IMG/VR virus record: IMGVR_UViG_3300045988_174698 | DNA length: 64,000 nt | Direction: 5' to 3' (one strand) | From: a virus | Part shown: one piece after another, positions 28,673 to 50,662 of the stretch | How positions within the stretch are numbered: position 1 is the first letter of the stretch | Layout: the number at the start of each line of letters is the position of its first letter | Notes under the pieces: model-generated | Database searches by the model: none | Told to the model about the DNA's origin: nothing | Seen by the model: only the letters and a program-made list of their open reading frames with translations | Position numbers and translations under genes: made by a program

Positions 28673-29577
28673 ATGTTCAAGTAAAACTCTTTTAATTGCT
28701 GGAAACCCCTAACGTAAAGACGAGGGCAATCAGCAGCCAAGCCGTAACAAAACGGAAGGTTCAACGACTAATATTAATAACTTAATAATTCGACTTTAAT
28801 AGTATGAAACAGTTAAAAACACATTTAAATAAAATAGGAAGAAATTTAATAATTGCTATGTCTATAGGGGATGGGCATATAGCTAAAAAAGGATATTTAG
28901 ATATAAATCATTGTGAAGCTCAGAAAGAGTATTGTTTATGAAAATGGCAACTTTTAAAAGATAATGGAGTTAAAGTTGGCACGTTTAGAGAATGAAAACA
29001 AATAAATGGATATTCTAAAGGTAAAGAAGTAACTAAATATGGATTTCAAACAACAGTACTTGATTTTTGTAAAGTACTTAGACGAGTTGAATATGAGTAC
29101 GGAAAAACTAAATATAATAAAAAGTTACTTAAGCGACTTGGAGCTCAAGGGTTAGCAATATGAATAATGGATGATGGAGCATTACTTCGTAGATCTAAAA
29201 CAAATAAAGATGGAATACGAACATATTCAGGATTTTATATTACAATATCTACGTATTGTCCATTAGAGCAAGCTAATGATATTATAGAATATTTTAATGA
29301 AGAATGAGATATTTATCCGACTAAGGTTTTTGATAAAAGGCAGCAATCCTATATAATTAATTTTTGTGCCAGAGAAGGTAGAAAATTAATAGAAATTATA
29401 AAACCTTATATGTGTCCCCACATGATGTATAAGGTTCTTCCTGATAAAATAGAATGTGAAAACTACATGAAGTTATTAAAAGAAACAGCTGAAACTGCTG
29501 TTGAAGGTACACTAGAAATAGTGGAAATGGAGAGCGCGAAAGCGAAGATATAGTCTGATCTATATAGAAATATATAG
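28673..29577 (+). mobile_element. group I self-splicing intron 1 (905 nt) with a homing-endonuclease ORF
   Basis: Conserved group I P7 elements GGTTCAACGACTA (28758-28770) and AAGATATAGTC (29545-29555). Frame is restored with omega-G at 29577. It contains a LAGLIDADG ORF. Confidence 0.6.
28804..29553 (+). CDS. LAGLIDADG homing endonuclease (double-motif, ~250 aa), intron-encoded
   Basis: Motif 1 LIIAMSIGDGHI; motif 2 LAI-W(TGA)-IMDDGALL; C-terminal PYMCPHMMYKVL resembles I-SceI PYLIPQMMYKLP. The TAG stop lies inside the P7 3' strand. Confidence 0.85.
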
Positions 29578-30260
29578 TTAACACAATTGATAGATAAACA
29601 ATATATCCTTGGCTATTCATTATCATCTAATGGTCGTATTAATACTGATGAAAACTCAGCACCTTATTTACGAGCTGATGCATTAAGAAATAGAGTTGTA
29701 GATGGTGTATTTAGTATTATTCTTAATCCTAGAAACCAAATTAACTTAACAATGCCAGTAACTACTGATCGAATGCAAAGTCTTGCTAAAAGATCTAAAA
29801 TGGGTGAAGCTGCTAAATATATGAGTCCTTACAATCCAGCAAGTAAGTACTTAATGCAGATTCAAAATATGGTTGGTAAAGCAGTTATTGGTAATGTTGC
29901 TACGGCATTAAAAAGTTTCTTTGCCTTAAGCAACGTATATAATACCAAGTTTAGAGAGATTAATGAAGCAATTCAAACTGGTAATTTTGATATAGCTAGA
30001 ACGATGTTAAAAAGATATACATTTATCCATAATGATAGACTAATAACATTAGCTAATGTTAATATGGAAGTATTTGAGAGTCTACCTGAAAATACTCCTG
30101 AAGATATTAGACAAACTCTAGCTCAAGTAATTAGTTATGAGGATGCCTTAGATGATCAATCTATGGTACTTGGAGAACTTTTAAATAGTGCTACTGATTT
30201 TTTCATCAGAAAATTATTGAATAACTTGCCTATATTAATTTTTATTATTATCTTTGCACT
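29578..30260 (+). CDS. exon 2 of the split giant virion gene (~228 aa); the 3' boundary is uncertain
   Basis: Frame-1 protein-like ORF (track 29587..30264) lying between two complete sets of intron P7 elements. It is not HE-like. Confidence 0.5.
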
Positions 30261-31450
30261 ATAGATAAAAATAATTTAAAACAAATTAATATGGCAAAGA
30301 AATTAACAAATGAAGAAGTTGAAAAACTTCATAAAATGTATTTAGAAGGAATGACTTGTGAAGAAATTGGAAAACTTACAGGTCATAAAACAGAAACAGT
30401 ATCTAAATATCTAAAAGAGAATTATGATATAAAGCCTCAAAGAAAAATTGATTTAGTAATTTTATCAAAACTAGCAAAAGAGGGAAAAACAACTAAAGAA
30501 ATGGCAGAATATTTTAATGTACATCCTTCTGCTATATGCTATTGAAAAAAGTATTTTAATGAAGGAGATCTAAAGATTTCGCACCCTTTTTTGCAAGAAG
30601 ATCATCAATTATCTCATCTACAAGAACAAATGATTCTTGGCAGTTTATTAGGAGATATGAACATAGGAAAACCTAGAAAACATCATCCTACTTGTAGATT
30701 ATCCTTAGTACACTCAATTAAACAAAAAGAATTATTTATGAAGAAAGTAGAAATTCTTGGAGAATTTATGAGTAATTATAGAGAATATAGTTATTTAGAT
30801 AATAGAACAAATAAAATATATTCTACTATAAGAGGAAATAGTAAATCTCATAAAGTATTTAATGATATGTATAATAAACTATATATTAATGATATTAAAA
30901 CAATTACTAAAGAATATTTAGATATGATTAATCATCCAATAGCATTAGCTTACTGATTTATGGATGATGGAACGAATTCTGGACAAATAGCTACAAATTG
31001 TTTTTCTTTTGAAGAGGTTAAATTACTATCGAATTGACTAGAAAACAAATTTGGTATTATTACAACAATGCACAAAAATTTAAGAAATTATACTTTATAT
31101 ATAGTTGCTAGCTCTAGATTTGAATTTGATAATTTAATTTCTCCTTATATTATTCCTTCTATGAAATACAAATTAAAATTTTCTGAAATAGCAGAGTCAG
31201 TTAACTCCGTGAAAACGGGAAAGCCCTTAGAGATTTAAATACTAAACTATTATAGTAATATGATAGTGGCTAAGCTAATCACTTAGATATAGTAATAAGT
31301 TTAAATATTGGGTAATCCGTTACTAAGCTTCCTAATAGGAAGAAAGTTCAACGACTATCGAAATGCAGAAATGACAGAGTAGAGTAGAACTTAAGTAAGT
31401 TCGAAGTGCGGAGATCCTGTATAGGATAAGATATAGTCTGAACTCATAGG
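30261..31450 (+). mobile_element. group I self-splicing intron 2 (~1190 nt) with a homing-endonuclease ORF
   Basis: GTTCAACGACTA at 31346-31357 and AAGATATAGTC at 31428-31438. The putative omega-G at 31450 restores frame 0 of the downstream exon. Confidence 0.55.
30291..31238 (+). CDS. I-SceI-like LAGLIDADG homing endonuclease with N-terminal HTH domain (~315 aa)
   Basis: LGSLLGDMNIG (motif 1); ALAY-W(TGA)-FMDDG (motif 2, identical to I-SceI LAYWFMDDGG); LISPYIIPSMKYKL tail. Two in-frame TGAs (30543, 30954). Confidence 0.9.
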
Positions 31451-33761
31451 AAACTATGAGAGAACTTATGGAAACGATAAGTTCGTAACAAAATTGAATG
31501 CAAAGGAATTAATCCTTAAAAAAATTAATGCAGATACAAACTGGGTAGATATTTATACTATTTCTCTTATGTTAGGTGAATCACTAGATGAAATTGGTAA
31601 TTTAATGATTGATGATGATATAACAGAACTAGTAAATGATTTTACTACTAGTATGTTTAGTGATGAACAGAACTATGATAAAGTTCGTTATGTTGCTGAT
31701 AAAGCATATACCTCTGAAGGAGAGAAAAAAGAGAAATATCTACAATTGCTGGATAAAGTTATATCTGCGGATGAAGTACGTATCTTAGGAAAGATACTTA
31801 AAATTAATCAAGGTCTTCCTACAAACACTTCTGATTTATATAGTTATATTAAATCTATTGAAAAATATATAGAAAGTAGGTTTAATAGACAAATACTAGA
31901 AAAACAAGAAGAATATTTAAGAATTGAAAAGGAGTTAGAAAAAACTTGATTAACTCCTGAAAAGAAGGAAATATTAAAAGAGGAACGAAGATTACAAAAA
32001 ATATATCCAGAATTAGAAGAAGGGTCTTCATTATATAATTTCTATAATAAATACAATTTAATATATGAAGATATAAATGGTAATATTAGACATGGAGATT
32101 TAGAAGCCAAACTTGGTAAACCTAAAGAAGCTATAAAGGCTAGACAAGATTACTTTAAGTCTAGAAAAGAAATGGCTAATATCTGGCAATCTTTTGACTT
32201 AGTTAGATTTATTACCGATCCAATCTACAAACAGGAAAGTATTGAAAAATATGAACAAAATAAGGTTAATTTTAATATTTTGGAAGTAATCAGTGCAGTT
32301 CCTCATTTTAGAGAAATGTTTAATGTTCTTGCAATTAACAAAAGTGTTCTTAATAGTTTATCATCTAGAAATAGGTTAGAAGATATAATTCTAAACCAAC
32401 TTAGTAGGAACTTTGCTGGAGTTCGTATGGATGTAAGCAAACCACTAAATAAACTTGAAATTAGAACTATAAAAGATCAGATAGATAAGTATCTTATTAG
32501 ATCTTGGATTATTAGTAAAGGAATTGAAATAAATGTTCCCGCTAGTCCTAAGAATCCAGCTCCTTATATATTAAGATTGGATAATGAAAATAATATTAAC
32601 AAGTTTAGAAGTTATGTTGAAAACTACGCTATTCCTTTATTAAAGGATAAGTTGAAAAATAATAAGTTTGTTCAGCTATTAACTTTTGGACTAAGACAAG
32701 GAGTTCCATTCTATAAGCTACCACTTAACATGGTTCAAGTTGATAACACTCAGAAGACTAGGGCTTTATACGAAGAAGCATTATATGCTTTTAATAACCT
32801 TAATAAGGTCAAAATAACTGGTATAGATATGAACTTAGTGGATATGTTTTATCTATATAACTTAGTTGTTAATCAAGATAAATTTGGTCCTAATTCTATG
32901 ACTAGGATATTTGAAGACTTAGTATCATCTGGTAATGAAGATCTTCTTATATATGATTTTAATAATTGAATTGATAGTCAAAATATTGAAGACTTAGTTA
33001 ACAGATTTAGAACAGAAGAAAATAGTATTAGGTTTAATTTAGTAGAATCAACTCCTATTGTAGATGACACAAATTCTGATATTGGATTTAAAGAAACTCC
33101 TTTAGAAGAGGATATTGAAGAGGCTCAATATGAAGAATTAGCAGATAATCCTGTTAAAGAAAATAATGAAGTAGCTGAATATTATCAAACTAACCCTTCA
33201 ACTAAATCAAAACTTATAACAATAATTAAAGAATCTAATTTAAAAGGACTTCACATAGTTACAGATTCTGATTTAGTTAATGAAGATTCTACTACTAGAA
33301 ATGCTAGGGGATTTGTGAAGAATGGTGAAATCTATATTAATGTAGATAGAGCCGAAGATGATACAGTAGTCCATGAATTTAGCCATTTATATTTAGCAGA
33401 TGCTAAAGTAAATAGTCCTAATGAATACTATTCAGTACTAAGTAGAGTTAGAAATACAGGTACTTGGAAATATATGAGAGAGATACCTGAATATCAAAAT
33501 AAAAGAGGATCTGATTTTGATGAAGAGGTTCTAGCAACTTTAATTGAGCGAGCATATAATGAGGGATTAGGAGGAGCAGATTATGATGTTGCAATAGATG
33601 CTCTGAATCTTACATCTCCAGAATTTAAATCATTTATAAAATCTGATATTCTACCATCATTAGGAGAGACATTAATAGAGAATTATAAGGTATCTCAAAA
33701 GATAGCTACACTTAAAAATAAGCTCATCAAAGATAATATTATTAAAGAGGATTGTAAATAA
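31451..33761 (+). CDS. exon 3 of the split giant virion gene (~770 aa); contains an HExxH zincin-like motif (VVHEFSHLYL, ~33366-33395)
   Basis: Track ORFs 31494.., 32172.. and 33315.. are all frame 0 and joined by TGA; TAA at 33759-33761. Confidence 0.55.
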
Positions 33762-36700
33762 TGGAATGTACATATGAAACTACAATAAACGGTAAGAAGA
33801 TAAAGTTCAGCTCCGAAATGGAGCTGGACAACTTCTTATCAAGTAAATTAGCAGATTATCAAATAAACGAATCAGATTTAACTTTTCAAATTAATCCTAT
33901 AGATAGTACTATAGAGAAGGTAAATGCTATTACAAGTAAAGTTAAAAATGCTTCTATAGAATCTGTAATTATAAATGATGATGGAGATTCAGAAACTATA
34001 CTTAAGATTCCTGACTCAATAGGTACTACTAGATTTATTACATCTAATGGGGATCCTTCTAATATGCAAAAGGAATTAGTTCCTCCTTTTAACTTAAATG
34101 ATTTCTTAAAAAAAGAAAGAGAAAGATTAAGTGCAGAAGGAATGACTAAATCTCAAATTGATTCATATTTAGAAAAGTTACAAAAGTCTTGAACTCAGTT
34201 AACTGATTATGGTACTGAAATACATTCCTTATTTGAAAGTATTATTAATAATACTACATTCAAACCAACTAATTTGAGTGAAGAACAGGTATTACGTTTA
34301 ACTGAAGAATTTAAATCCTTTATTGAAGATATTAAATCTAAATATGGTAAAAATGCTAAAATCTTAACAGAAGTTCCTATAATATCAGATAAAATTCATG
34401 AAGCATATCAATCAGAAGGAATTAAAAGTATTAATGGTAGAATTGATATGCTAGTTATTGACCAGAGAGGATTTGCTCATATTTATGATTTTAAAGTTTC
34501 TAGAAAAGAAGTAGGAATATGAGAGGATACTAGAAACATACAAGGATCAACTACATGGCACTCTACTAAAAAACGTTCTGTGGGGTATCAGTTAGGAATA
34601 TATAAGAATATTCTAGCACAATATGGCATTACTGTAGGAGAAACAAACGTTGTTCCTATTAAAATAGATCCAGAATATAATGAAGATGGAACTATTAATA
34701 AGCTAAATGATGCTTATATTGATTTTACTAAAATAAAAGTAAATCCTAATGCTCCATATACAGAAACTATAAATACTATTCTTCCAGTAAAAACATTACT
34801 TGATGATATTGATCTTATAAACTCAATTCAGGAACCAATGACTAAATTTGTTCCTAATTATGCAGTAGAAACTCAGGTACAGAGAAATACAGTTACTGTG
34901 GATAAATACATTAATAATCCTAGAATTGTACACTATATTGATGACACTGACCCAGAACGAAAGTTTGGAAAATACTGAATTTGGAATAAATATAAGAAGA
35001 ATCGTAAAGTATATGCTAAAACAGAGGAGGAACTCAGAGAAAAAGTACAAGAATTAGTAAATGAAGAAAATAAACATATTCACTCTGAAATGTCTACCTT
35101 AGCGGATACCATTCAACAAATTATTGAAGGATATGGATCCATTGATGACTTAGCTGCTGATAACCCATTTAAGTCTGATTATTGTAAAAAGATATTTAGA
35201 AAATATTTAGTAAAAAAGAGTGAAACTGACTATGGATGAACTTTTCAAAATAATCCTAAATTTATAGCTGCAGGTATATTTGTATTTACTAAGGATGGTA
35301 AAATGGAAATAATATCTGTTACTCATAATGATATTCATTCAGTTGTTAATTTAGGTCTTGGCAAATCTATTCAAGGAGCAACTAAAAAGGATAGTGATAT
35401 TGATAGTCATGTAATAATGCAAGCATCTAACGGTAATATTGACCTTGTTAAAGTTATGTGTTTATTAAATAATATGCCTGAGGTACTTAAAGGATACAAA
35501 GTTAATAAAATAGAATCACATAATATTTGAATTCAAAAAGGTACTGAGACCTATTTAGAAACTCTTTTAGATAATTTTTCTGAATTATGCAGGATACATG
35601 GTATTACCAATAATCTTACATCTCAAAATTTTGCAACAACATTAGAAGCAGCTGTAAATATAATAAGAGATACTGCTGGTGAAGAATTACTATCTCACAT
35701 GGGTAATTGAGAATTTAATTTTAGTCCTAATGATATTGTAAATGGAGTTCCATTCATCTTGCAGAAAATGGAACAACTAAGAAAATTAAAATCTGCAGAT
35801 GGCCTTCGTACTGCTTTAAGAGAAGGCAAATGAAATTTTGATGATCCTATTCAGCTAGCATATATGTTATTAGGCAGAGCACTAAATAAACTTAACGGAT
35901 ACTCTATTTATATTGAACAAGATCCTAAATTGTGAGTAAATTTTTCTAGGGAAGGATGATACACTGGTTCATATGTGAATAGTGCTAGTAACTCTTCTTC
36001 TAAAAATATTCAAACATTAAGTAAAATATTTTCAGTAGCAGAAGCTCATATTAGAAGGAAAGAATTATCATACAAACCTAGGATTAGTAAAGTAGTTAAG
36101 GCTTTATATGAATACAATCACAGAAATAGACTTATTGGAGGTGAGGTTAAGTTTTTTGATAACTTATTTGTTAAGGATACAAACGGTAATATAGATAAAT
36201 CATTTAGACTAAAAAATCCTTCAGATAGTAGTTTGGCTAAGGAAGAATCTGACTTTATTAAGATGTTTCTAGAGATAGTAAATGATTTTAGATTTGATGG
36301 TAATCAAAGTAAAATAGCTAAAGCCATTGAAGACGGTTCTTACTATGAAGTTCCTGTTTCTATGGGAAGTACATCTACTCAAATCCACAATAAAGGATAT
36401 AAACAAGCCTTTACATCTAAATATAATGAAGCTTTAAACTTTCTAAAACTTCTTCCTGAACAAGAGCAACAATTTAGGGAATCAAAAGGAGAGCCAAAGG
36501 TATATAATAAATATAGATTAAATGGACTTAGTAGATCTGATTTAATTGAAAATTATGGGATAGATGGTCTAGAAACTCAACTTGAAGATTTGCTATTAAA
36601 TGTCATCCATACATACACAATGGAAGAAGTAATGAATGAATATCTTCCCAGACTTCAAGGTATTAAGATTGCCTTACAATATCAAACTGGGATGTTTGGA

Positions 36701-38161
36701 GTAGTTACTGATCATGTTTTAGAATATATAGATAAATTTATTGATGCTAACGTTTATAGTAAGCCTATTATGGCTAAAGAATTGCAAGGTGCATATAAGA
36801 TGTTATCTGTAGTTAAATCAATAACAACAGCTACCGCTCTCGGTTTAAATCTTAGATCAGGTATTCGAGAAATGATGCAGGGAATGTGAATACATCTAAG
36901 TAGAACTATGGCAGAAGCTTATGGAAAGGATCAGTTTACTAAAAAAGATGTTGCTAAAGCATGGGCTATTATATTTAAACAAAGTGTTAAAGATATTAAT
37001 ACTTTAACATTAATTGATGCCTTAAATGTGGATTATGGAATGGCTAACGCCGATCCCCATCAAGTCCAAGAGAGACTAAGTTCATCTAAAGCAGGTATTA
37101 AAAATTTAGATTCTGATTCACTATACTTCTTTAATAGAGTACCTGACTCGTATCATAGAATGGGATTATTAATTGCTAAGATGTTGCATGACGGATGTTA
37201 TGAAGCTCATAGTATTGTCAATGACCAACTTATCTATGATTTCAAAAAGGATAAAAGATTTAGTTTATTGTCTGATTCTAAAGCTGATAAGAATTCTATA
37301 GAGTATAAAAAGCAACATGCTTTATATACTGCTATGAGAGAACAGTTTAATAGAGAAGGATGAAATATCCAAGATGGAGATGATTTACCACGGGCTTATA
37401 CTATTCAAGAAGGAACTAGTATTAAATCGTTTGCGGAATTATGCTTTGGGCACTATGATAAAAGTACGCAAATGCTTATGAAACAAATGTTTCTAGGTGC
37501 TATGATTCTACAATTCAGAACATTCCTATCAGCTAAGTTTGAACAGTGGATATTAAAGCCAGATACTTATAATCAAGGTCAATACACTGAAAAATTTGAT
37601 GAAAATGGAGTAAGATATATTCGTATATTTACATTTGATGAAAAAGGAATTCCATCTGTTAGAATCGGTCTTGAAACAGAATTAAAACCTGATGATATTT
37701 GGGAACCTTACATTGAATGGCAAGGCAGATTTATGGAGGGAATTGCATATTCAATAATTAGTTTTGGAAAAACATTATACAAGTTAGATTTTAATGGTTT
37801 TAAAGAACTATGAAAAAATCCAACTAAAAGAGCTAATTTCTATTTATTCTTACATGATATGATCTGAATGTCTATACTTATGTGAATTGTTAAAGCTCTA
37901 TTTTTATCTGAAGAAGAAGATCTTGGACCTGTGGGTCATTTAGTAGGTACTTCATTATATACATCTTTTTCTGACGGGCCAATTACTAATATTATGGCTT
38001 CAATGTTTGGAGATTTAAATCCACCTATGCATAGCATAGTTGTGAACTTATATAGACAAACTTCTGGAATAATTACAGGAGATGTTAATTTATTTGATGC
38101 TGGTGTCAATTCATTTGGAGCATTAAATAGTTTAAAATATATTGGTGATCAGTTAGAATAA
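33761..38161 (+). CDS. giant virion protein (~1467 aa) with N-proximal PD-(D/E)xK (RecB/Cas4-like) nuclease motif
   Basis: Eight track ORFs 33761..38161 are all frame 2 and joined by TGA. 'GRIDMLVIDQRGFAHIYDFKVSRK' matches D...(D/E)xK nuclease motifs II-III (~34430-34510). Confidence 0.55.
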
Positions 38162-38228: not shown

Positions 38229-38735
38229 TTACTTGGGAATTAACACCATGTTCATTCTTTTACCTTCCAACTTTGGTTTAGATTCAACTTTAGCAATATC
38301 TTCAAGATCCGTAGTCAAACGTAACAAAAGAGATTCTCCCTGATCTTTAAACATAATTTCTCTACCTTTAAACATTATGTATGCTTTTACTTTAGCTTTT
38401 GAATTGATAAATTCTCTAGCATGTTTTAGTTTAAATTGATAATCATGTTCGTCTGTCTGTGGACCAAATCTTAGTTCTTTAACTATAACTTTCGCTTGAC
38501 CTGCTTTTAAGACTTTTTCCCGTTTTTTCTGTTGGTATAGAAATTTCTGATAATCTTGAAAAATACATACTGATACTTGGTTTTTATTGTTATCAATATA
38601 TACTGATAGTTCAATTAAATCAGTATTAGTATCTACAGCCTTCCTTAAAGCATCAGAAAGAGAAATTAACTCCCCGCTATCTTTTATTCTGATAATCTGA
38701 GAGTTAATTTCATAATTTATAGAGTAATTTTTCAT
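38229..38735 (-). CDS. infC: translation initiation factor IF-3 homolog (full length, both domains)
   Basis: The 168-aa product aligns along its whole length to bacterial IF3: DYQKFLYQQKKREK...KELRFGPQTDEHDYQFKL...FKGREI...VESKPKLEGKRMNMVLIPK vs E. coli DYGKFLYEKSK...KEIKFRPGTDEGDYQVKL...FRGREM...[20 protein letters not shown]. Confidence 0.9.
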   Translation of the reverse strand: MKNYSINYEINSQIIRIKDSGELISLSDALRKAVDTNTDLIELSVYIDNNKNQVSVCIFQDYQKFLYQQKKREKVLKAGQAKVIVKELRFGPQTDEHDYQFKLKHAREFINSKAKVKAYIMFKGREIMFKDQGESLLLRLTTDLEDIAKVESKPKLEGKRMNMVLIPK

Positions 38736-39623: not shown

Positions 39624-40838
39624 TTATTCAAGTGTAAATTTAGCAGTAAAGTTCATATTAGGATATGAATCCTTAAGGGACCCATTATACACTGAATATA
39701 ACTTTTTTATAATGCTGTCCTTAATAAAGTTTCTAGATAGTTCTTTGTCTTTGCTGTTAGTACTATTTAAGTACAATTTGTCTATTATATAGTTAATAAA
39801 CCCCTCATAAACTTCTTCTTTTTTTATCTCTAAAATAGATAATATATAGTTAAATGACTTAGAATTATAAATGTTAGATTCTTTAATAATTTTCCAATTG
39901 TGTAAGAGATAAATACTAATTATGCATTGGTACTTTTTTATATTATACGAAGATAGAAGCTTTATACCTAAAGTAATATCATCAAGATTAGTAGATAATA
40001 TCATTTTACCTAAGCTTACAACACTATCTTCTGTTAATTCAAGTTGATTATTAGCAACAATTTCATTTAAATCGGAATCATACATAATATCTGAATATTT
40101 TGTTTGTAAATTTTCGATAAATTCAACTTCTTTAATATTAGATAGTAAAACTACAGAACCATAATATATTTGTTTACAATCGTTTGGTAACACAGATCCA
40201 TTTATTAACATAGAGGCCCATCCATATAGTCCTTCAAGATTTGGATCTTTATATTTGTTAAATACAGAGTTGAAATATGAAGATTTATTAGGGTCTAAAA
40301 TCTTATCTATAATATAGTCTATAAAATAATAGCAGTTTTTACTTGAGGAATACAAAATTAAAACGTCCTTAATCTTTTTAGATGATACTAACGATGATAC
40401 TTCATAGGTCTCAAAAGATATTTTATCGCTTATAACAATAGCATCTGCTTTAGATGGGTCTAAGCAACGTTTAATATTAGTTAAACTATTAAGGTTACGT
40501 CGTGGATATTCACTGGTAGGATCAAAATATATCTTTTTTAAGTTAAGTTGACTACTAATTCTATGCTTAGAATTAATTTTATTATTAATACAAGTACTAT
40601 CTCCAAGATATATACCTTTTGCAGTCACAGGTGTAGTAACTATTTTACCATTCTTATAGTATAGATAAGAAGAACTATAAAAATCAGCATTATACCAAAT
40701 ATAACTGTGTTCAGTGTCTCCAAAGTCGTTTAATCATACCAGATCTGTTAAACTAGCATCCTCAACATTAGTATCAAATCTTGTTTTTTGGTTATATATA
40801 ATATATTTTATATTATTTTTATTAATATGTAATAACAT
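39624..40838 (-). CDS. hypothetical protein (~404 aa) adjacent to the MoxR/VWA pair
   Basis: Track ORF 39624..40628 extended upstream through a TGA to an ATG at 40836-40838. Confidence 0.5.
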
Positions 40839-40839
40839 T

Positions 40840-41922
40840 TTAAATAAGTTTTGCAGCTAATTTTGGGTTAAGTAATAGTTTATTACATTTACCAGGATAG
40901 TGTTTGTTTAGTGTTCTTACTAGGCTAAAGAGTAGATCTTCAGTTAACAATAACTTATCATTATCAACTATCCTAAGAATACGATCTATAATTAGGTCCA
41001 TTTTACACCCAGGTTTACTAAGATATAATAAGCTATAATTTATAAATCTAGTGGTAATTACAGAAGCTATATCGGCACGATACTTACCTTTATCATATAA
41101 TTGATTCTCAAGTATCCTTTTAATATCGTTCCAATCCGTATTAACTAGTTCTTCTGGGGAAGGAAGTTTATCTAATTTATTAGCTATGAATGTAGTAAAT
41201 AATCCCCCAACAATATCATCACTATCAAGAAAACATCCAGAAGCTATTTGCAGAATAAAGGATAAATTCTCAGGTTTAGACCAATCATCAATACTAGAAA
41301 TAGTATTAATAAACATAGTATAATTGCGAGCATTAATTTTAGACTGCCTAGATTTTGAACGGTCCATTAATTCATCACTATAAAGAAGCATAAAGTTAAT
41401 CGCCTGATTATTATACCCTTTTTCCTCGGCATATTTAGCCCAATCATATTTATCAAACTTAATATTAAAGTTTAACATACGGGTTTTTATAGCCTCATCA
41501 ATTTCTGTTACATTAAAATCTCCCCCTTCAGGATTAGCTGTTAAAATAACAGTACTATTAGGAGGTAATTTCCAAGAGAAATATTCTTGTCTTGATATAA
41601 GCTCCATAATAGCAGCCAATACAATTGGAGAGCTACGATTCACATCGTCAAGATTCAAAATTGTAGGTTTACTTAGATCAATACTTTTTATCCATTCTGG
41701 AATTGCATAGCTCATTCTAGTTTCCTCAGATATTTCCCAACCTGCTTTACTATAACTTTCTATAAGTTCTGCAGTTATCCATCTACATTCATCATTTTTA
41801 CATACATAGTGCTCTTTAATTGGCCACCCGCAAATTTCTCCTGGGTCTGAAATTTGACTAAGGTTTTTCTTGATGTAATTAGCACCAATTTCACTAGCTA
41901 TTTGTTCGATTAAACTCGTTTT
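40840..41922 (-). CDS. MoxR-like AAA+ ATPase, exon 2 (from KTSLIEQIA of Walker A onward; 360 aa)
   Basis: Walker B/sensor region ILNLDDVNRSSPIVLAAIMELI...VILTANP matches the MoxR/AAA_5 pattern (ADEINR ... NP). Confidence 0.6.
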   Translation of the reverse strand, partial: KTSLIEQIASEIGANYIKKNLSQISDPGEICGWPIKEHYVCKNDECRWITAELIESYSKAGWEISEETRMSYAIPEWIKSIDLSKPTILNLDDVNRSSPIVLAAIMELISRQEYFSWKLPPNSTVILTANPEGGDFNVTEIDEAIKTRMLNFNIKFDKYDWAKYAEEKGYNNQAINFMLLYSDELMDRSKSRQSKINARNYTMFINTISSIDDWSKPENLSFILQIASGCFLDSDDIVGGLFTTFIANKLDKLPSPEELVNTDWNDIKRILENQLYDKGKYRADIASVITTRFINYSLLYLSKPGCKMDLIIDRILRIVDNDKLLLTEDLLFSLVRTLNKHYPGKCNKLLLNPKLAAKLI

Positions 41923-43338
41923 CAATTTTGTTATCTCTAGAGCTTTTTATCTCTAGATTCTATATCTTCATATTCGATATAGTTCAGCATATCTTTTCAC
42001 CTCTAAAAATAGTAAGGTGGAGCACACTCGTGGGAAAATTATATTCTGTACAACAGGTTCATTTCCTATGCGTTGCACTGTAGCAAATCATTTAAATCTG
42101 CTATTAGCTCAGGATTAGCATCTCAGCCTTCCCTGAATTTGCGCTCTAATAATTTTAAAGATTTCTCTTTAAAACGGCAATCTTTGATTTTATTAAATAT
42201 TTGATATTTTCTATCTAAATAAATTGTTGATTTATAATATAGGTGATATAAGTAGGCAGTTGCCTTTATTCCCGAAAAACTAAATGCAAAAGTAAAATCG
42301 CTATGATTATTAGAAAACAAATGTCTAGGCTCTAAGTAGCTTACCATTTTACTTAAAAATTCTTTTGCACCTAAACAGCTTATTTCTGGTTTATCATATA
42401 ATCCTAATGACCCATCACCATCAAAATATCCTCTAATAAAATGTCTTATTAAATCTTTAGACTTAAAGATATTTTCATTAGGAAATTTTAAAGTCAGTGA
42501 CTTTTTAGGAGTACATCCGTAAGAATTTAATGTTTCTCATAAGTGTTTATTTGTTAGAGCAAATCTACATCTAAAATATTGCTTATTGTTACATATAATA
42601 GATGATATTTTTACTCTATTACCTGTTACTTGAAAAAACTTCTGTAATTTATATAAATGTTCCACATCAGATCCTTTTAAAGAAACTTCAAAATTATAAT
42701 GAGGTTTTCCATTTTTAGGAATTGAAGCAATATATCCATCAGCAAAAATAAAACCCAATCAATAAGCTTTTTCTTCGGTATCTATAATATCAAAAATGTG
42801 TTCATTAAATTTTAGCATATTTTGAGTATTAATAACTGGTATTCCAAGTTTCTTTAATCTAATAGAAAAATTGCTTCGACTAAATTTATATTTATTACTT
42901 ATTTGTGTTAGGCTATAACCATTACTATACATCTGCACTGCCTCTTCAAAGTAAGTATCTAAATTACTCTTTCGTATATTAATGTTATTATTATGAAGAA
43001 TAGTGGAAATAGTATTTCTGGATACATTATATAGTTTAGCTATATCACTACAAGTTTTACCCAAATTATATAGTTTACAAATATTAATTTTTTCAGATAA
43101 TATTAATTTACTACACTCTCTACAAAGAGAATTTCTATTAGCTACACGACTAACTGTAGTAGGATGTACTTTACAAATTTTACTTATATCTTTAATCTTA
43201 TAACCTTGATTATATAAATCAATAATCTTATTTTCTAAATCATTACTAATTTTTTGCATAATATTTAAATTTTAAATAAATTAAATCTATGCAAAAGTAA
43301 TAATATAAAACAATTTAATCAAATATTTTATAATAAAT
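41923..43338 (-). mobile_element. group I intron (~1416 nt) carrying a LAGLIDADG HE, splitting the Walker A codons of the MoxR-like ATPase
   Basis: Exon 1 ends GGU AUA GGU|U and exon 2 starts |AAA ACG AGU after an omega-G, giving LPGIG-KTSLIEQIA. An AAGATATAGAATC P7-3'-like element and a perfect P9-like hairpin tctagagataaaaagctctaga lie just upstream of the 3' splice site. Confidence 0.55.
42123..43259 (-). CDS. LAGLIDADG homing endonuclease (~378 aa) with N-terminal repeated HTH domains
   Basis: Track ORFs 42759..43259, 42537..42758 and 42123..42347 are in frame and joined by TGA. Motifs LGFIFADGYI and IRGYFDGDGSLG. Confidence 0.85.
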
Positions 43339-43461
43339 TACCTATACCAGGAAGTGAAGTAAGTTGAACACTTATTGGAAATTCTCCTCTTTCTTGGAGA
43401 GATCTATTATTGTTTATAATATATTTTAAAATAGGTTTTATTTCTCCTAATGTTAGTTCCA
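43339..43461 (-). CDS. MoxR-like AAA+ ATPase, exon 1 (41 aa, MELTLGEIKP...VQLTSLPGIG, first half of Walker A)
   Basis: Small ORF starting one codon after the VWA gene stop. It ends in GPGIG at a U that fits a group I 5' splice site. Confidence 0.5.
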
Positions 43462-43467
43462 TATTTA

Positions 43468-44619
43468 TTACGGTATTAATACAGTTATTCCTGGAAACTT
43501 CTGAGATTTATTCCCATCAGATGTAATAATCCAGATTAAGTTTTTACAAGTTGAAAATGTAAATTTAGATAAGTAACCATCAGTAAATATCACACAAGAA
43601 CTAAATTCTTTGTGTTCTTTATAGAAGTCTAGAGCTGGGCAAACATCAGTACCTCCACGACCAATAAATTCAAATTTACTTTTTTTATCATATTTACATA
43701 TCTTAGTGATATTAGTATCACACTCTATAATTGTTATATCTACACCTGTTTTATATATATGATTAACTTCAGATATAAAATTAGAAAAGTCATTCATATT
43801 TATAGAACCTGAAGTATCAATAACAACACATATGTTTGGTTTTCTTTTTAAACGAGTTCCTCTAGCATCAGGTAATCTTTTTGAAGGTCTCATCCTAGTT
43901 AATTGTAGATCACTACTAATAGAATCTCCAACTACTCGTCTAAAATAGTTTCTCCAGTTAAAAACTGGAGGATTATTTCTTATTTTTTCAAGTATTTCTT
44001 TTAATTCTCCAGGTATGTGGCCTACTTGTTTATTAACAAGAGCTTCTGTTTCTTTTAACTTAGACTTTACTTGATTTTCATATAATTTACGTTCGGCTTC
44101 CGATATATCTTTAGGCCACATATCATGATTATCTATACTTTTAAAGTCGGCTAATCCTTCAGTACCAGGGATACATTTTTCAGGGTGTTCTTTAACAAAC
44201 TTTTGTATTTCATTATAATAATACCACGCCCCTCTATTGGGCTCTAGGTTCTTTCCAATTAACTTAGAAAGATTCTGTAAAGTAACACACCCATCAGGCA
44301 ATCCTGTAACTATTTGGTTCACAACTACATCTGTTGCTATATTCATATTATCATGATTATCTGCTTTGAAATCATCAGTAAGATGAAATAAACATATGTG
44401 TACTAACTCATGGGTGAGCACAGCAATACATTCAGTATCAGTAAGGTTATTCCAAAATGTTTCATTTACATATAATGTAAAATTGATACCATTAGGACCT
44501 ACAGCAGCTGTTTTTACAGGATGATTATCACTAACAATCTCCTTGCGTAGATTTAGCAAGAAAAGTCCATAAAAAGGTTGCTGAATAAGAAGCTCTTTAC
44601 ATGCTTTAATTAATTGCAT
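43468..44619 (-). CDS. DUF2201-type putative metallopeptidase (HExxH) fused to a VWA domain (MIDAS DxSxS)
   Basis: HELVHICLFH at the N-terminus and ICVVIDTSGSINMNDF...GGTD at the C-terminus. This architecture is the classic partner of MoxR AAA_5 ATPases. Confidence 0.7.
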   Translation of the reverse strand: MQLIKACKELLIQQPFYGLFLLNLRKEIVSDNHPVKTAAVGPNGINFTLYVNETFWNNLTDTECIAVLTHELVHICLFHLTDDFKADNHDNMNIATDVVVNQIVTGLPDGCVTLQNLSKLIGKNLEPNRGAWYYYNEIQKFVKEHPEKCIPGTEGLADFKSIDNHDMWPKDISEAERKLYENQVKSKLKETEALVNKQVGHIPGELKEILEKIRNNPPVFNWRNYFRRVVGDSISSDLQLTRMRPSKRLPDARGTRLKRKPNICVVIDTSGSINMNDFSNFISEVNHIYKTGVDITIIECDTNITKICKYDKKSKFEFIGRGGTDVCPALDFYKEHKEFSSCVIFTDGYLSKFTFSTCKNLIWIITSDGNKSQKFPGITVLIP

Positions 44620-44791
44620 ATTCTATTTCATCTTTATTAAGCCAACGTTTAAATGTTAATCTAACAACGCCTTTTATAGGTGCATCTAACATTTTATAGT
44701 CAGCATTACATTCATAAAAAATCCTAGGATTGTTGGTATCATAAGTCCAACAAATCCCAGGATATTCGTTAGTTAAACAATATTTTCTCAT
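44606..44791 (-). CDS. small hypothetical protein (61 aa)
   Basis: Track ORF; its ATG overlaps the upstream stop (TAATG). Confidence 0.35.
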   Translation of the reverse strand: MRKYCLTNEYPGICWTYDTNNPRIFYECNADYKMLDAPIKGVVRLTFKRWLNKDEIEYAIN

Positions 44792-45375
44792 TAGTGTTGT
44801 TTACAATATATTACGCCTTGATAACGGCTATTAAAGCAAAGATTACATTTTCTGCAATCTCCTTTACATCTTACAGCATTATTTGGTAAATTATTAAATT
44901 GAAACTTATCTACACAGAAAAACCAACGGTGTGCTTTAATATTTGGAGAAGAAGAATTTACTATAAAGTGAACTCCGCTAAAATTTAAGTCCTCTCTACA
45001 GGTATAACAATATGTTTTAATTCCAAAAACTTTATATAACCATCGTCCAATATTAGATCACCTGTCAACAGACTGTTGATCTGGAAAATCACCCGCTTCA
45101 TTAAGTCTAACGTATTTAATCTTAACAGGAGCATTTAATATATAATACATTAGCATGTCCTTAAGATCTTTATCATCCCACAAATACATGTATGACTCAA
45201 TCAATGTGTTTTTGTGCAAGTATGCTTTATATATACGTTCACATTTTTTAGCATAACATACTTTACTACATCTACAGAAGCCTAATCTTTCCGAAGGACA
45301 ATGTACTGCAGATGTAATATTTACTATGAGTGTTTCTTTTGGTAATTTGGCATTCCCATATGAAAATACTTGCAT
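44791..45375 (-). CDS. Cys-rich putative metal-binding protein (~194 aa, 15+ Cys)
   Basis: Track ORF 45058..45375 extended through TGA (45055) to TAA at 44791. Clusters HCPSERLGFCRCSKVCYAKKC and CKGDCRKCNLC. Confidence 0.5.
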
Positions 45376-45403
45376 ATTACCTAAGCCTCATCGCTCTTGA
45401 AAT

Positions 45404-45859
45404 TTAATAATATTCGTATTCATCATAGTTTTCATTATAATAGTCTTCATCTCCAGTATCATCTCCTATAGGATTATTAAACCCATATTTAACGGAAGTT
45501 GCTTTGAAAAGAGGTAATCCATAGTAGGCATAATTATCATTAGACCAATTTTCCAAACCTTCTTCAAGGATCCAGTTCCACATCTGCACCACCTCAAACA
45601 TTAGACTCGAAGAAATGCCTCTTTTATCTAAGGCTTTCTCAAAACCAAAAGCAACATCTTCTTTAAGCTGCTTCAGTACATTCTCTCTGGTAAAAGGAAT
45701 AGTCTTTTTATCCCATTCTTCCTTAGTTACGTTATCTTGAAGAGTTAGACCACAAAAAGGAAACATTTCAAAGGGAATGAATTCTGCAAGTCTATATAAA
45801 TCTCTTCCATCTATCGTAGGACTTTTATATGCTACTTTAATCTGTTCAAGTGTTTTCAT
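45404..45859 (-). CDS. hypothetical protein with acidic Tyr-rich tail
   Basis: Track ORF. Confidence 0.45.
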   Translation of the reverse strand: MKTLEQIKVAYKSPTIDGRDLYRLAEFIPFEMFPFCGLTLQDNVTKEEWDKKTIPFTRENVLKQLKEDVAFGFEKALDKRGISSSLMFEVVQMWNWILEEGLENWSNDNYAYYGLPLFKATSVKYGFNNPIGDDTGDEDYYNENYDEYEYY

Positions 45860-45928: not shown

Positions 45929-46168
45929 TTATCTTTTGTTAAGTTTAAATTTACCACAACGTAAAGAACCACTAAGCCCTAAATCTAAACTACCATAAAC
46001 ATAAGATTTATAGAAACTTCCATATGGGTTAGCCTCAAGACTCCAATCCTCTAAAGCTCCAATCTGATACATAATACTATCTATATTATCAATAGGAATC
46101 ATCGGTAAATCTAATTCTCTATTACTAGAATTGAGAAATTCTTCTATTAGTTGTTTAATCGTTTCCAT
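45929..46168 (-). CDS. hypothetical protein
   Basis: Track ORF overlapping the thyX stop. Confidence 0.4.
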   Translation of the reverse strand: METIKQLIEEFLNSSNRELDLPMIPIDNIDSIMYQIGALEDWSLEANPYGSFYKSYVYGSLDLGLSGSLRCGKFKLNKR

Positions 46169-47069
46169 CTAATAAGTTTCTTTTAATAAACTCTTCTTTT
46201 AAAGGAATAGCTAGTTCCTGAGCCTGAGGATGAGCTGCTTTATCAGTTCTAAGTTTAAAGAATCCTCTCCACTGTTCAATAGTACCAGTCATAATTAATT
46301 CTGTTTTTGTGCACAATGGAAGAATTTCTCTAGCCTCTTGAGCTTTACAACCTCTGTTAATAAGAGCTTTATAATTCACTTCAGCTGATTCACACTGAGA
46401 TAAGAAAATGTCAACAGAGTCTCCTTCAAAATGTTTTAGTATGGTATTGGGAATATTATTTTTATCTGCAGCATCTACCCAATCGTTATCCCAATATTGA
46501 TATCTAGCCTCCTTTAAATCAGTCCAATAAGGAATAATAAACGTAAGTTCGTTATTAAATTTATCGGAATTGTAATTGCAATATCTTGTTGATTGTTCCG
46601 CAAATGATAACACGCGATGGCGACAAAACTCACGACTTATAGAAATTGGAAGAATAAACTTTACTGTAATTCGTTTTTCATGATATTCAGTAGGTTCACA
46701 GAGATGTTTTAAATCGTCAAGCCAGCCATTTTCATATAAAACTCTGTAATTAGTTGTGATATGATAATTACCATAAGAATCTGTATTAATAACTGAGTAA
46801 GAATTAGAAAGGTATTGTTTAATTACCCAATTATCACCTATTATATTGGAAGCATGATCCTTATGAATATAAAGATATACAGTGCCATGTTCAAGCATTG
46901 CGGTATGCTGTCTATCCTTAATCATATTAACAAACTTCTCTGCAGAATCTTCTGTAATACGATCCTCTGACTTATAACATGTTCTTCCTGCTCTTTCAAT
47001 TTGTTTATATATTCCTTGAATACCTGGCTCTTGTTCTAAAATTTCAAAACTACTTTTAATAAGTTTCAT
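46155..47069 (-). CDS. thyX: flavin-dependent thymidylate synthase ThyX
   Basis: ThyX signature RHRxxSxxxxSxR present as CRHRVLSFAEQSTRY. Length 304 aa. Confidence 0.9.
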   Translation of the reverse strand: MKLIKSSFEILEQEPGIQGIYKQIERAGRTCYKSEDRITEDSAEKFVNMIKDRQHTAMLEHGTVYLYIHKDHASNIIGDNWVIKQYLSNSYSVINTDSYGNYHITTNYRVLYENGWLDDLKHLCEPTEYHEKRITVKFILPISISREFCRHRVLSFAEQSTRYCNYNSDKFNNELTFIIPYWTDLKEARYQYWDNDWVDAADKNNIPNTILKHFEGDSVDIFLSQCESAEVNYKALINRGCKAQEAREILPLCTKTELIMTGTIEQWRGFFKLRTDKAAHPQAQELAIPLKEEFIKRNLLDGND

Positions 47070-47870: not shown

Positions 47871-48328
47871 TATGTATTCATTTTATAAAACATTTGTATC
47901 TTTTCTTTCAAATCATATAGTATTGCTTTTTCCTGAACAGTATTTACAAATAGTTCGTACATATTATACTTTTCATCATTATATATTAACAACATATCAT
48001 TAATACTTACATCAATATAATTACCTCCTATATAATATCGTAATTTAAAATTAATATATGAATTATTACATTCATACTTAATATCTGTATAACATTCTGA
48101 AGCAATATTTAATAAATTATTAATAAAGTTCTTTGTATAAGATACAACCATTCTATTTGTAATTGGAATCCTACTCTTTGTTCGGTCTTCAATATTTCTA
48201 ATAACATCATTTACAACACTATCCCTTGCTATTATTGTAGCTTGATCTGATTCAATTTTACAAGTTCGAGATTGAAGATTAGAAACAAACAGTTGAATTT
48301 CTTTTAAAGTTAAATTTTCATCATTCAT
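47870..48328 (-). CDS. hypothetical protein (152 aa)
   Basis: Track ORF. Confidence 0.45.
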   Translation of the reverse strand: MNDENLTLKEIQLFVSNLQSRTCKIESDQATIIARDSVVNDVIRNIEDRTKSRIPITNRMVVSYTKNFINNLLNIASECYTDIKYECNNSYINFKLRYYIGGNYIDVSINDMLLIYNDEKYNMYELFVNTVQEKAILYDLKEKIQMFYKMNT

Positions 48329-49253
48329 TAAAATAATTTTAATTGTTTATGCTTAAACATACATACGATTTTTTGTGCTGCAGCTATATAAAAAGAATAA
48401 TTAATATTAGATGGTAATTCATCAGATTTATTAATAGTATTCAAAATTGTTACGCCAGAGTCAGTTAATAGTTTAATATAGTTATATCGTCTACCATTAG
48501 AATCTATTTTACATTTATATAGCCATGGACCATCAGTAGATATATAATATCGGTTAATACGTTGAATTAACTGACCATCATATTCTACAGAATAATCTTT
48601 ACTAACTTTTTGATAAGTTATAAACTTATTAATATCCTTACAAGCATAAATAGTATCTGCAACAGGAATTCCATCTGCTAAACATTTATTAATAGCTTCG
48701 GGAATAATAACTGCATCCATACCTTTGCCAAGTTTTACCTTGTCGATAAACATACCTTTTGTCTTTAAAAGACTTGGATCTTTTGTTTCAGAATAACCTT
48801 CCTTAATTGCAAGATAGTCATTAATAGCAAACTGATACATTGCTTCAAATCTATCCTCTTCAAGAGTAAGTTTAGTTAAGATTTCCCAATTCTTGCAAAT
48901 TTCTTGTACATTGGTATATTTGTTTCGTTTTAATAGTACAAATAATCCATCAGTATTAGCTTGAATTATTCTACAACCTGCTTGAACTAATTTCTCCGCT
49001 AACATTAATAACATCAATTGTCCATTAATTCTAATTTGCATAACAGCATATGGAGAATAACAAAAATTATGTTCATTTTGTAGATTACCAGACAAACCGT
49101 TTAAAGCAAGTTTTAGAGTTTCATTCTTAACTTTATTTCCATTATGTTTAGCTTCTAATCGTTCATCTCGAATTTGAGAGTAAACTTCAAGGAATTCTTT
49201 ACCAAGATGTTTTGGATAAAATCCATATTGTATAATAATGCTAGGATATAGTG
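48328..49253 (-). CDS. family B DNA polymerase, exon 2 (from SLYPSIII of motif A to the C-terminus; degenerate motif C ANTDG)
   Basis: Hand translation upstream of track ORF 48328..49095 gives ...ALYPSIIIQYGFYPKHLGKEF... The exon begins after an omega-G. Confidence 0.8.
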
Positions 49254-49638
49254 CATATCCATTTTAATTTTCGACTATATCTTAATTTTTATATCTAATT
49301 TGTTCTGAATTTAATTCAATGTAGTGTCATTTAAAGCCTTTATATGAAGCTTTTGTACCTTGACAACAACAATAAATGGATATAACCAAATTAAATTTAT
49401 AAAAATTCGCGGCGTTTCGAATAAAACCTTATAAAGTTTTATCCTACTCTCTTTCGAGATAGTCTGTGAACCTTGATCCTATAAGGATCCTTGGCTGCGG
49501 ATTATAATACTTATTAAGTTTTTACTTTCTCATAAGCGTTATCTTATGTGCTACACTATGTATTACTACTAGCTGCAGTATTAATAAGTTAAATTAAGTT
49601 CCCGCAATTAACCGCGTTTTACTTGCGCCACTATATTA
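49254..49638 (-). mobile_element. ORF-less group I intron (385 nt) inside motif A of the DNA polymerase
   Basis: Contains AAGGTTCACAGACTA (plus 49452-49475) and AAGATATAGTCG (plus 49272-49283), near-identical to the Tetrahymena P7 strands. P1 pairing UUGCGU/GGCGCAA. Splicing yields DIDVA-S-LYPSIII. Confidence 0.75.
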
Positions 49639-50662
49639 ACGCAACATCTATATCAATAAGCATTTCATCTTTTGTAGGTATAATTTCCTCAGGTTTATTA
49701 ACACTATGAATACCTCCAACTCCAACAGTATATTCTAATTCATCAAATATAAAATGTTTCTCATATCCTTTACGTCCAGGAGAAACTGTTTGCTTTTTCA
49801 TATCAGCTAATACACTTTTAAGTATAGGTGATTCAAACTCAATAAAAGGTAAAATAACCTCATTTAATGGAATTAAATCGCAAGGTGACCTCAAATCTTT
49901 AATTTGATTTCAGGTTTGTCCTGTTTTTTCAAGATACTTTTGAGTAATAATTTTCATTCCAATATTAACTCCATCTTTATTAAGTACCTTTACTCCATAC
50001 TCATCTTCAATAGCTATACGTAAATCAATATCCTTTTTACATCTATTTAATAATTCCTCAGTAGAATCAACATCATTAATATTATATTCTATCATTTTAG
50101 GAATTTCAGATACAGGAAGATAATCTTGGAAATCGCCTTCATATTCTTGAACATTTCGAAACTGCATAGTTACTTGCATCTCCTTTAACCCTACTCTCAA
50201 CTTTTGAGAATAAAGCATAGTTAACAAGTCTAATGTTTCAAAATAAATTTTATATTTCCACTTTGTTCAAGAACTAAAATTAGTATCAGTAGATTGAATT
50301 ATTAAATTACTAAGTTTAAATAAAGATGCGCATATCTCTGAATACGACATCTTTAACATTACTTTATGAAAATCAATAATATAATTAATAATAGGATTAT
50401 CATAATGAATATTATTGTATCCACAAAATATTTTATCTGTTTTAAACTGTAAGTTTGTAGTATAGTTTCTTTCTCAAATACCAATTTGAGATTGATTTCT
50501 AACAGTTCAAAATAAATCTACTAACTCTTGTAAATTATTCTTACGTTCAGATATTTCAAAAAATAAGCGTTCTCCTGTTTCTGTATTTTTTACAACACAG
50601 TGAAACACATTAGGAAATATTTCAATATCATAAACGTATACAGTTTTATTTCTAATTAACAT
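49639..50662 (-). CDS. family B DNA polymerase, exon 1 (3'-5' exonuclease domain and palm up to DIDVA)
   Basis: Code-4 translation gives Exo I YVYDIEIF, Exo II FCGYNNIHYDNPII and a second YNINDVDS block. Start ATG overlaps the upstream stop (TAATG). Three in-frame TGAs. Confidence 0.8.

Follow-up and report, generated by a model that had tools for sequence, protein, structure and literature searches.

Phage group I introns of subgroup IA, such as those of T4 td, nrdB, and nrdD and of Twort orf142, interrupt conserved catalytic motifs and carry an endonuclease open reading frame (ORF) that is looped out of the ribozyme core. GIY-YIG and HNH enzymes have been reported to be the most frequent endonucleases of phage introns (PMC3984707). 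The crAss-like phages of the human gut, with genomes of 145-192 kb, are very densely populated with group I introns and LAGLIDADG ORFs; they recode TGA to Trp or TAG to Gln, harbor up to 14 introns per genome, and typically carry these introns in the genes encoding the major capsid protein (MCP), PolB, primase, and an AAA ATPase designated ATP_43b (PMC7886860). In the TGA-recoded 'Agate' phages, the endonuclease of a group I intron located in an early gene prefers TGA over TGG, and in-frame stop codons have been proposed to delay its production to late infection (10.1101/2021.08.26.457843). The NorQ-NorD and CbbQ-CbbO pairs consist of MoxR-class ATPases working with von Willebrand factor A (VWA) partners (PMC13036017, PMC9976466; PDB 9qh4-9qhg, 6l1q). 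Here, we describe a locus of a 64,000-nucleotide (nt) stretch of viral DNA (IMG/VR record IMGVR_UViG_3300045988_174698, analyzed in full and referred to as the window) in which these features are combined. The interpretation that we regard as very probable as a whole is that a mobile group I intron encoding a TGA-dependent endonuclease is inserted at GIG^KT, inside the Walker A of an ATPase of the MoxR class that has a VWA partner (the caret marks the junction). All features of the locus are on the minus strand, and coordinates are those of the whole window.

A previous reading of the window made from its letters and ORF translations (the sequence-only reading) had proposed that a 41-codon ORF ending in ...LTSLPGIG at a U and a downstream ATPase ORF devoid of Walker A are joined at LPGIG^KTS, the second exon beginning after a G. 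Both ORFs were recovered. The first (43328..43462), which comes next after the VWA gene (44619..43468) going downstream on the minus strand, starts at ATG 43462 and reads MELTLGEIKPILKYIINNNRSLQERGEFPISVQLTSLPGIG followed by NLL and a stop codon, the last exon base being T43340. The second (40840..41925), called from a TTG codon about 1.4 kb downstream, contains the LDDVNR (Walker B) and TANP (sensor 1) motifs and no P-loop; the base preceding AAA ACG AGT is G41923. Conceptual splicing generates the junction ...GGTATAGGT^AAAACGAGT... (GGU^AAA). Used as a query, the resulting sequence of 401 amino acids (aa) retrieved P0001, an uninterrupted protein of the same length that differs by a single residue, reads ...SLPGIGKTSLIEQIA..., and carries the predicted LPGIGKTS Walker A motif. 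The 166-kb contig encoding P0001 (L001) displayed 99.2-99.8% DNA identity to the window and lacked exactly positions 43339..41923, its exons being contiguous and joined GGT^AAA (intron-less site, CTTCCTGGTATAGGTAAAACGAGTTTAATC). Related phages with an uninterrupted gene therefore carry exactly the Walker A junction that had been proposed. The comparison with L001 left an ambiguity of 2 nt ('AA') in the position of the insert; since the group I rule requires exon 1 to end in U and the insert to end in G, the boundary was placed accordingly. Residues G39, G41, and K42 of Walker A were invariant in 18 uninterrupted homologues; among 67 homologues, G39 and K42 were invariant and G41 nearly so. Finally, the Pfam AAA_5/AAA matches and the PDB match to midasin aligned straight over the exon junction. 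Together, these results establish the boundaries of the insertion and the restoration of a continuous conserved ORF.

The intron-bearing allele (P0018) was present on at least 31 contigs, and N-terminally truncated gene calls of 337-368 aa accounted for about 10 of 120 homologue clusters among the matches listed. In many assemblies, gene callers start a 361-aa product at TTG 41925 (P0018-P0020), and the upstream ORF, which reads on into the insert to reach 44 aa, has its own ATG and stop codon. These features would be expected if a free-standing homing endonuclease cassette had split the gene and if the 44-aa and 361-aa polypeptides reassembled, as for the split genes of T-even-like phages. 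We consider this scenario extremely unlikely because the break lies inside the P-loop, between G and K, and because the 'TTG start' (41925-41923) corresponds to the last three bases of the insert, i.e. to the conserved end of the intron tail GAUAACAAAAUUG. In addition, about 260 nt of sequence outside the endonuclease are conserved with extensive base-pair covariation. An ORF-less copy of 291 nt also interrupted the gene at the same base in L002, which encodes an ATPase about 59% identical to that of the window. Interruption at the same base by an element devoid of any ORF makes sense only if the element is removed at the RNA level.

Homologous introns occupied the same site in L002, L004-L009, L011-L013, and L015. 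The same element was found in L004, L011, L012, five IMG/VR contigs, and two further metagenome contigs, and copies of the family occurred both with and without an endonuclease. A pattern scan detected diverged members in other genes of environmental metagenomes (L016-L019). In L017 (1070-1347, minus strand of the locus), an ORF-less copy of 277 nt interrupted a gene for DNA polymerase (...KLILNG^TSGLL...), with an exon ending in CGGU that pairs with GCUG of the guide sequence, and the L016/L019 copy adjoined an HNH-like ORF. The L016/L019, L017, and L018 copies have in common GUGCAACGCAUA, AGAUAUGCUGAAC, the AUAAAAAG loop, and the GAUAACAAAAUUG tail. A motif search of the window revealed no further copy of the family.

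Since the Rfam model RF00028 did not match the insert, the RNA structure was built from comparative analysis. The cores of nine family members were aligned with MAFFT, without fitting to any structure, and folded with RNAalifold, which recovered P3, P4, P5, P6/P6a, the P7.1 stem, P8, P9, and P9.1. P2 and the P7 pseudoknot were added to this structure before pairs were counted. Paired cells amounted to 90.7%, versus 33-46% if the partners were slid by one to three columns, and the observed pairing values were reached by none of 500 shuffles. Compensatory changes were detected in 37 of the 64 base pairs, with four to six such pairs in each of P3, P6, P7.1, P8, P9, and P9.1. For example, the P9 hairpin, CUAUAUC...GAUAUAG, is replaced in relatives by CUAUAAC/GUUAUAG and CUAUAAA/UUUAUAG. 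Single-sequence minimum free energy (MFE) folds, computed for the L002 intron and for the window intron with a shortened P1 loop, reproduced P1, P2, P3, P6, P8, P9, and P9.1. Inspection of the insert beside the canonical introns of the window identified the P (AAUUCAGGGAAGG), Q (AAUCCUGAGC), R (GUGCAACGCAUA; canonical form, GUUCAACGACUA), and S (AAGAUAUGCUGAAC; canonical form, AAGAUAUAGUCUGAAC) elements. The terminal G41923 was invariant in the nine family members. In the MFE folds of both the window mini-intron and the L002 intron, P1 was formed with U43340 opposite the guide G of AAGAUUGCC; this wobble pair showed no covariation because every exon examined ends in GGU. An earlier candidate for P1, found by eye, had GUUUUAUAUU near 43313 as the partner of the exon end and was dropped because the ORF-less L002 intron places the guide sequence directly upstream of P2. 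Thus, the insert is a group I intron, as indicated by its P/Q/R/S-like elements, P3/P7 pseudoknot, U-G pair, and terminal G, and its RNA structure is supported by covariation. Two labels of the sequence-only reading had to be revised in this model. The sequence AAGATATAGAATC (41968..41956), taken for the 3' strand of P7, is the 3' strand of P9, the true P7 being GCAUA/UAUGC with the segment AAAAGAUAUGCUG. The perfect hairpin at 41957..41936 was indeed present and corresponds to P9.1 rather than to P9.

The only reason for considering that the insert might be another element, namely a group II intron, an intein, or an assembly chimera, is the absence of a match to the Rfam model, nothing specific being in favor of any of them. 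An intein is excluded by the stop codon located three codons past exon 1. Neither a reverse transcriptase nor a group II domain V/VI was found, and many independent assemblies (ENA, Logan, IMG/VR, and NCBI) have the same insert at the same base. Since the P/Q/R/S-like elements and the P3/P7 topology are also of the group I type, the probability of such an element is negligible. Among group I introns, the P7.1/7.1a insertion between P7 and P3', of a type associated with subgroup IA, and the presence of P9 and P9.1 before the terminal G liken the insert to the T4 and Twort introns. The intron differs from classical phage introns by the LAGLIDADG type of its endonuclease, by the location of the ORF in the P1 loop, from which it overlaps the guide sequence through P5/P7, by a P7 of sequence GCAUA/UAUGC instead of the usual GACUA/UAGUC, and by the absence of any RF00028 score.

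The endonuclease, which the sequence-only reading had correctly placed in the insert, contains the two motifs LGFIFADGYI (42758-42735) and RGYFDGDGSL (42431-42411), with their acidic residues, in one chain. It matched LAGLIDADG_3 (29.6 bits versus a cut-off of 22.5) and PHROG 4645 (1.9e-53); LAGLIDADG_1 was below cut-off (19 versus 23.1), and a PDB sequence search returned nothing convincing. The earlier description did not mention the TGA recoding of the endonuclease. The endonuclease ORF contains three in-frame TGA codons (42761-42759, 42539-42537, and 42125-42123) and no TGG codon. The TGA codons are located at typical, conserved Trp positions (AYW-LGF, HLW-ETL, and EGW), and the L004 orthologue (64% identical) has five TGA codons, no TGG codon, and Trp at the same sites. 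The longest ORF of the window, 641 codons under the standard code, grew to about 2580 codons once TGA was read as a sense codon, indicating that the whole phage uses TGA for Trp. The TGA:TGG counts were 80:36 in the giant (late) genes of the plus strand, 26:49 in the minus-strand genes, 3:0 in the endonuclease, 0:8 in the ATPase, and 0:5 in the VWA gene (Fisher p = 0.0018 for 3:0 versus 0:13 in the latter two genes combined). The contrast between the endonuclease and its host gene, together with the 5:0 count of the L004 orthologue, is reminiscent of the codon bias of the Agate phages. The window differs from the Agate phages in that the minus-strand ('early') genes also contain TGA codons, so that the early/late split is not clean. 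Translation of the endonuclease would end at a UGA codon in the P5 loop (42125-42123) or, following read-through, at a UAG codon inside P7 (42068-42066), the last 40-59 codons or so overlapping the guide sequence, P2, P3, and P4 through P5/P7. Elsewhere in the window, TGA read-through opens ORFs of 1445-2562 aa on the plus strand, e.g. 975-5723, 9235-13572, 15454-23142, 23132-28684, and 33761-38161.

The spliced ATPase matched AAA_5 (25.5 bits versus a cut-off of 22) and was below the cut-off of AAA_3, the family of MoxR proper (19.8 versus 27). A PDB profile search retrieved midasin AAA modules (5.8e-15). Besides G39 and K42, residues D133, D134, N171, R189, and R240 were invariant among the 67 homologues, the set covering Walker A, Walker B, sensor 1, and the arginine positions. 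An AlphaFold model based on these homologues (predicted local distance difference test score, pLDDT, of 91.4) included an additional C-terminal half, which is helical and about 200 aa long. In Foldseek, the 16 best PDB matches of this model were NorQ, NorQ-NorD complexes, and CbbQ2 (E values of 3e-9 to 2e-8; target-normalized template modeling [TM] scores of 0.6-0.68), and 2r44 was also among the fold matches. The MoxR class assigned in the sequence-only reading was therefore retained, the predicted fold being closest to NorQ/CbbQ and the protein being better named as a member of the AAA_5 NorQ/CbbQ-like subclass. The phage ATPase resembles the NorQ-NorD and CbbQ-CbbO systems by its predicted fold, its AAA_5 match, and the adjacent VWA gene with a metal ion-dependent adhesion site (MIDAS). 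It differs from NorQ by its extra helical C-terminal half and by a sequence identity of only 11-14%.

The adjacent gene, described in the same reading as a VWA protein fused to an HExxH peptidase domain, encodes a protein that indeed matched DUF2201_N (45.2 versus a cut-off of 23.2) and DUF2201 (54.8 versus 26.4). Among 57 homologues, the zinc motif HExxHxxxxH (H70, E71, H74, and H79) and the MIDAS motif DxSGS...TDG (D268, S270, G271, S272, T346, and D347) were invariant. These matches and motifs identify the domains of the partner, as do those reported above for the ATPase and the endonuclease. No solved relative was found for the N-terminal domain of the partner, and a PDB sequence search with the whole protein returned nothing convincing. 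In contrast to NorD and CbbO, the N-terminal domain of the partner is an HExxH metallopeptidase (DUF2201_N). The ATPase and VWA/peptidase genes were also found side by side in Enterobacter phage vB_Ecl_SABI and E. coli jumbo phage EJP2, indicating that the pairing recurs in unrelated phages. A literature search on DUF2201 in phages provided nothing useful.

The following mechanism is proposed for the locus. The pre-mRNA would fold into a group I ribozyme comprising P1, formed by GGU^AAUUU and the guide sequence AAGAUUGCC, and a core extending from P2 to P9.1 with a subgroup-IA-like P7.1/P7.1a insertion between P7 and P3'. External guanosine would attack after U43340, and the freed exon 1 would then attack after the terminal G41923, joining the exons into the coding sequence of a 401-aa MoxR-class ATPase. 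The endonuclease, whose activity is predicted, would presumably cut intron-less alleles at the conserved sequence encoding the P-loop, and repair would copy the intron into the cut allele. Since Trp is encoded only by TGA in the endonuclease and only by TGG in the host gene, full-length endonuclease would be produced only once the TGA suppression of the phage is active. The spliced ATPase would most likely form a hexamer that, in the manner of NorQ with NorD, engages the neighboring DUF2201 protein at its VWA/MIDAS domain, and would remodel a bound target, activate that target, or present it to the fused HExxH peptidase.

Homing driven by the endonuclease would explain both the presence/absence polymorphism in near-identical genomes and the spread between divergent phages. 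The intron core was 81-86% identical between phages with an exon 2 only 64-67% identical, indicating that the intron has spread horizontally between divergent phages. The intron content of the two near-identical genomes was reciprocal, the window combining the ATPase intron with an uninterrupted thyX (46155-47069) and L001 displaying the opposite arrangement, with two RF00028 matches in thyX (1939-2156 and 2515-2847, versus 46307-46653 in the window). In L010, the ATPase had an intact Walker A motif and was interrupted after ...EPGD by a different intron containing a GIY-YIG ORF (about 1890-2990); the VWA/DUF2201 gene of L010 contained two canonical group I introns (150-439 and 1201-1484; 68 and 73 bits). 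A megablast search of GenBank phages with 5.2 kb returned one 426-nt match only, inside the endonuclease.

Several observations weigh against the proposed mechanism. RF00028 did not match the insert in scans of the window and of a 1.9-kb region (gathering threshold and E <= 10), nor the ORF-less relatives in L002 and L012 (E <= 1), and the same model does match other introns, at related loci and once elsewhere in the window (38-79 bits). P4 and P7 were invariant in the nine sequences, and hence uninformative for covariation, in part because both helices were fixed by the search pattern. P1 involves three exon bases only, and P10 about 2 bp. The endonuclease ORF is open only if its three TGA codons are read as Trp, i.e. 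in the presence of a TGA suppressor. The 64-kb window contains no tRNA gene, which places the gene for the suppressor in another part of the genome. As to the partner, the match of its C-terminal domain to VWA and integrin I-domain folds was weak (E values of 5e-3 to 2e-2; NorD at rank 33), and its interaction with the ATPase is proposed by analogy. Finally, self-splicing is deduced from the anatomy of the intron. This last point, together with the absence of recognition by the Rfam model, would be compatible with the ATPase gene being a pseudogene, inactivated by a mobile element that no longer splices. This alternative is very unlikely since the exons are intact, in frame, and as close to the uninterrupted allele as stated above for L001, with a product that differs from P0001 by one residue. 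Moreover, the intron-bearing allele was found in several diverged lineages, in addition to the contigs mentioned above, always with intact exons. The compensatory changes in the ribozyme helices also indicate continued selection on the RNA fold. We retain a mobile intron predicted to be removed by splicing as the interpretation of the locus.

Table 1. Features of the ATPase locus and of the group I intron (window coordinates; RNA helices in 5' to 3' order).
Feature	Position	Strand	Description
Cys-rich GP88-like ORF	44791-45462	-	Two TGA codons; upstream neighbor conserved in relatives
61-aa ORF	44606-44791	-	Upstream neighbor conserved in relatives; only three Cys
Partner gene	43468..44619	-	DUF2201_N metallopeptidase domain (HELVHxxxxH) fused to DUF2201 VWA domain (DTSGS MIDAS); no TGA
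ATPase exon 1	43340..43462	-	ATG 43462..43460 to T43340; 41 codons; ends in ...LTSLPGIG, first half of Walker A
P1 5' strand, GGU^AAUUU	43335..43342	-	Spans 5' splice site; U43340 in U-G wobble pair
Group I intron (insert)	41923..43339	-	1417 nt; starts with AAUUU after exon U; ends in ...GAUAACAAAAUUG; omega-G 41923
LAGLIDADG homing endonuclease	42066..43259	-	Double-motif; three N-terminal helix-turn-helix domains; 397 aa with TGA = Trp
Internal guide sequence AAGAUUGCC (P1 3' strand)	42176..42184	-	Directly upstream of P2; inside 3' end of endonuclease ORF
Ribozyme core	41923..42174	-	Helices as listed below
P2	42174-42153	-	
P3	42146-42141 with 42025-42020	-	
P4	about 42135-42131 with 42113-42109	-	
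P5	inside 42128-42117	-	
P6/P6a	42103-42081	-	
P7	42071-42067 with 41991-41987	-	GCAUA with UAUGC; pseudoknot with P3
P7.1/7.1a	42066-42033	-	Between P7 and P3'
P8	42019-41998	-	
J8/7-P7 segment AAAAGAUAUGCUG	41997..41985	-	
P9	41982-41960	-	
P9.1	41957-41936	-	
3' tail	41935-41923	-	
ATPase exon 2	40840..41922	-	KTSLIEQIA... to stop; Walker B LDD, sensor-1 N, helical C-terminal half
404-aa protein	39624..40838	-	One in-frame TGA at 40736; downstream of ATPase

Both flanks of the gene pair are conserved in relatives (Table 1). In these relatives, the gene encoding the 404-aa protein always followed the ATPase gene, and the ORF is present as described provided that its TGA codon is read through. 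Its product diverges much faster than the ATPase, with identities of 58% where the ATPase is at 90% and of 21-24% where the ATPase is at about 59%, and had no Pfam or PHROG match. The Cys-rich flanking protein of the earlier description corresponds to the GP88-like ORF; the immediate neighbor of the partner gene is the 61-aa ORF. On the same strand, 38229-38735 encodes a homologue of translation initiation factor IF-3 (IF3_C, 1.1e-32; IF3_N, 3e-9) that is conserved in L001.

The window contains at least four introns in 64 kb, the three others belonging to more canonical families. Two are on the plus strand, each with a LAGLIDADG_2 endonuclease ORF: 28685-29586 (ORF 28804-29553; canonical P/Q/R elements at 28690-28775) and about 30265-31497 (ORF 30291-31238; R/S elements and ...GUAACAAAAUUG end at 31340-31497). 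They appear to split one giant gene (23132-28684, 29587-30264, and 31494-33761), and neither reached the Rfam threshold. The fourth (49259-49647, minus strand) is an ORF-less group I intron (RF00028, 37.8 bits, E value of 5e-8, below the gathering score) that was missed by the whole-window Rfam scan. It splits the DNA polymerase gene in ...IDIDV^...LYPSII..., between ORFs 49631-50662 and 48328-49095. This intron density, the contigs of the relatives, which reach 166-172 kb, and the N-terminal exon of the polymerase, 62-69% identical to that of cr109_1, cr113_1, and others, liken the window to the crAss-like phages. In the published survey of these phages (PMC7886860), introns were found via protein domains, and no splice junctions or RNA structure were given for this ATPase. 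A tblastn search of a GenBank phage set with the ATPase returned remote matches only, at 22-30% identity and none from a crAss-like record, so that equivalence with ATP_43b is not established.

Introns of this kind, and TGA-biased intron endonucleases, are already described in recoded gut phages (PMC7886860; 10.1101/2021.08.26.457843). The exact junction inside Walker A, the covariation-supported structure of an intron family missed by RF00028, and the occurrence of the ATPase-intron family in other genes and environments are modestly new. For annotation, the true product of the locus is an ATPase of 401 aa whose P-loop is intact; in many public gene calls (P0018-P0020 and others), a 361-aa protein lacking Walker A and an orphan 44-aa peptide stand in its place. 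For RNA curation, a family that is invisible to RF00028 is nevertheless widespread, occupying genes for the ATPase and for DNA polymerase in gut phages as well as in environmental metagenomes, and the alignment of nine sequences with its structure could seed an RNA family model.

As to the biological target of the ATPase-VWA module, and to any function beyond that of a MoxR-type remodeller with a VWA/peptidase partner, we are limited to inference, and the counter-defence or assembly role suggested in the sequence-only reading is speculation. One doubtful possibility is that the AAA_5 ATPase, the VWA/HExxH-peptidase, and the fast-evolving 404-aa protein form a phage-specific, MoxR-driven remodelling and proteolysis machine directed against a host protein, for takeover or counter-defence, with the 404-aa protein as the specificity subunit and the intron with its TGA-gated endonuclease as a timing layer. 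The locus provides a clean natural example of intron presence/absence polymorphism between 99%-identical phage genomes. It also illustrates clearly how the translation of an endonuclease can depend on the recoding of a stop codon, as has already been proposed in the literature. If such a machine did exist, the intron and its TGA-gated endonuclease would add timing to the production of the ATPase-VWA-404-aa complex.

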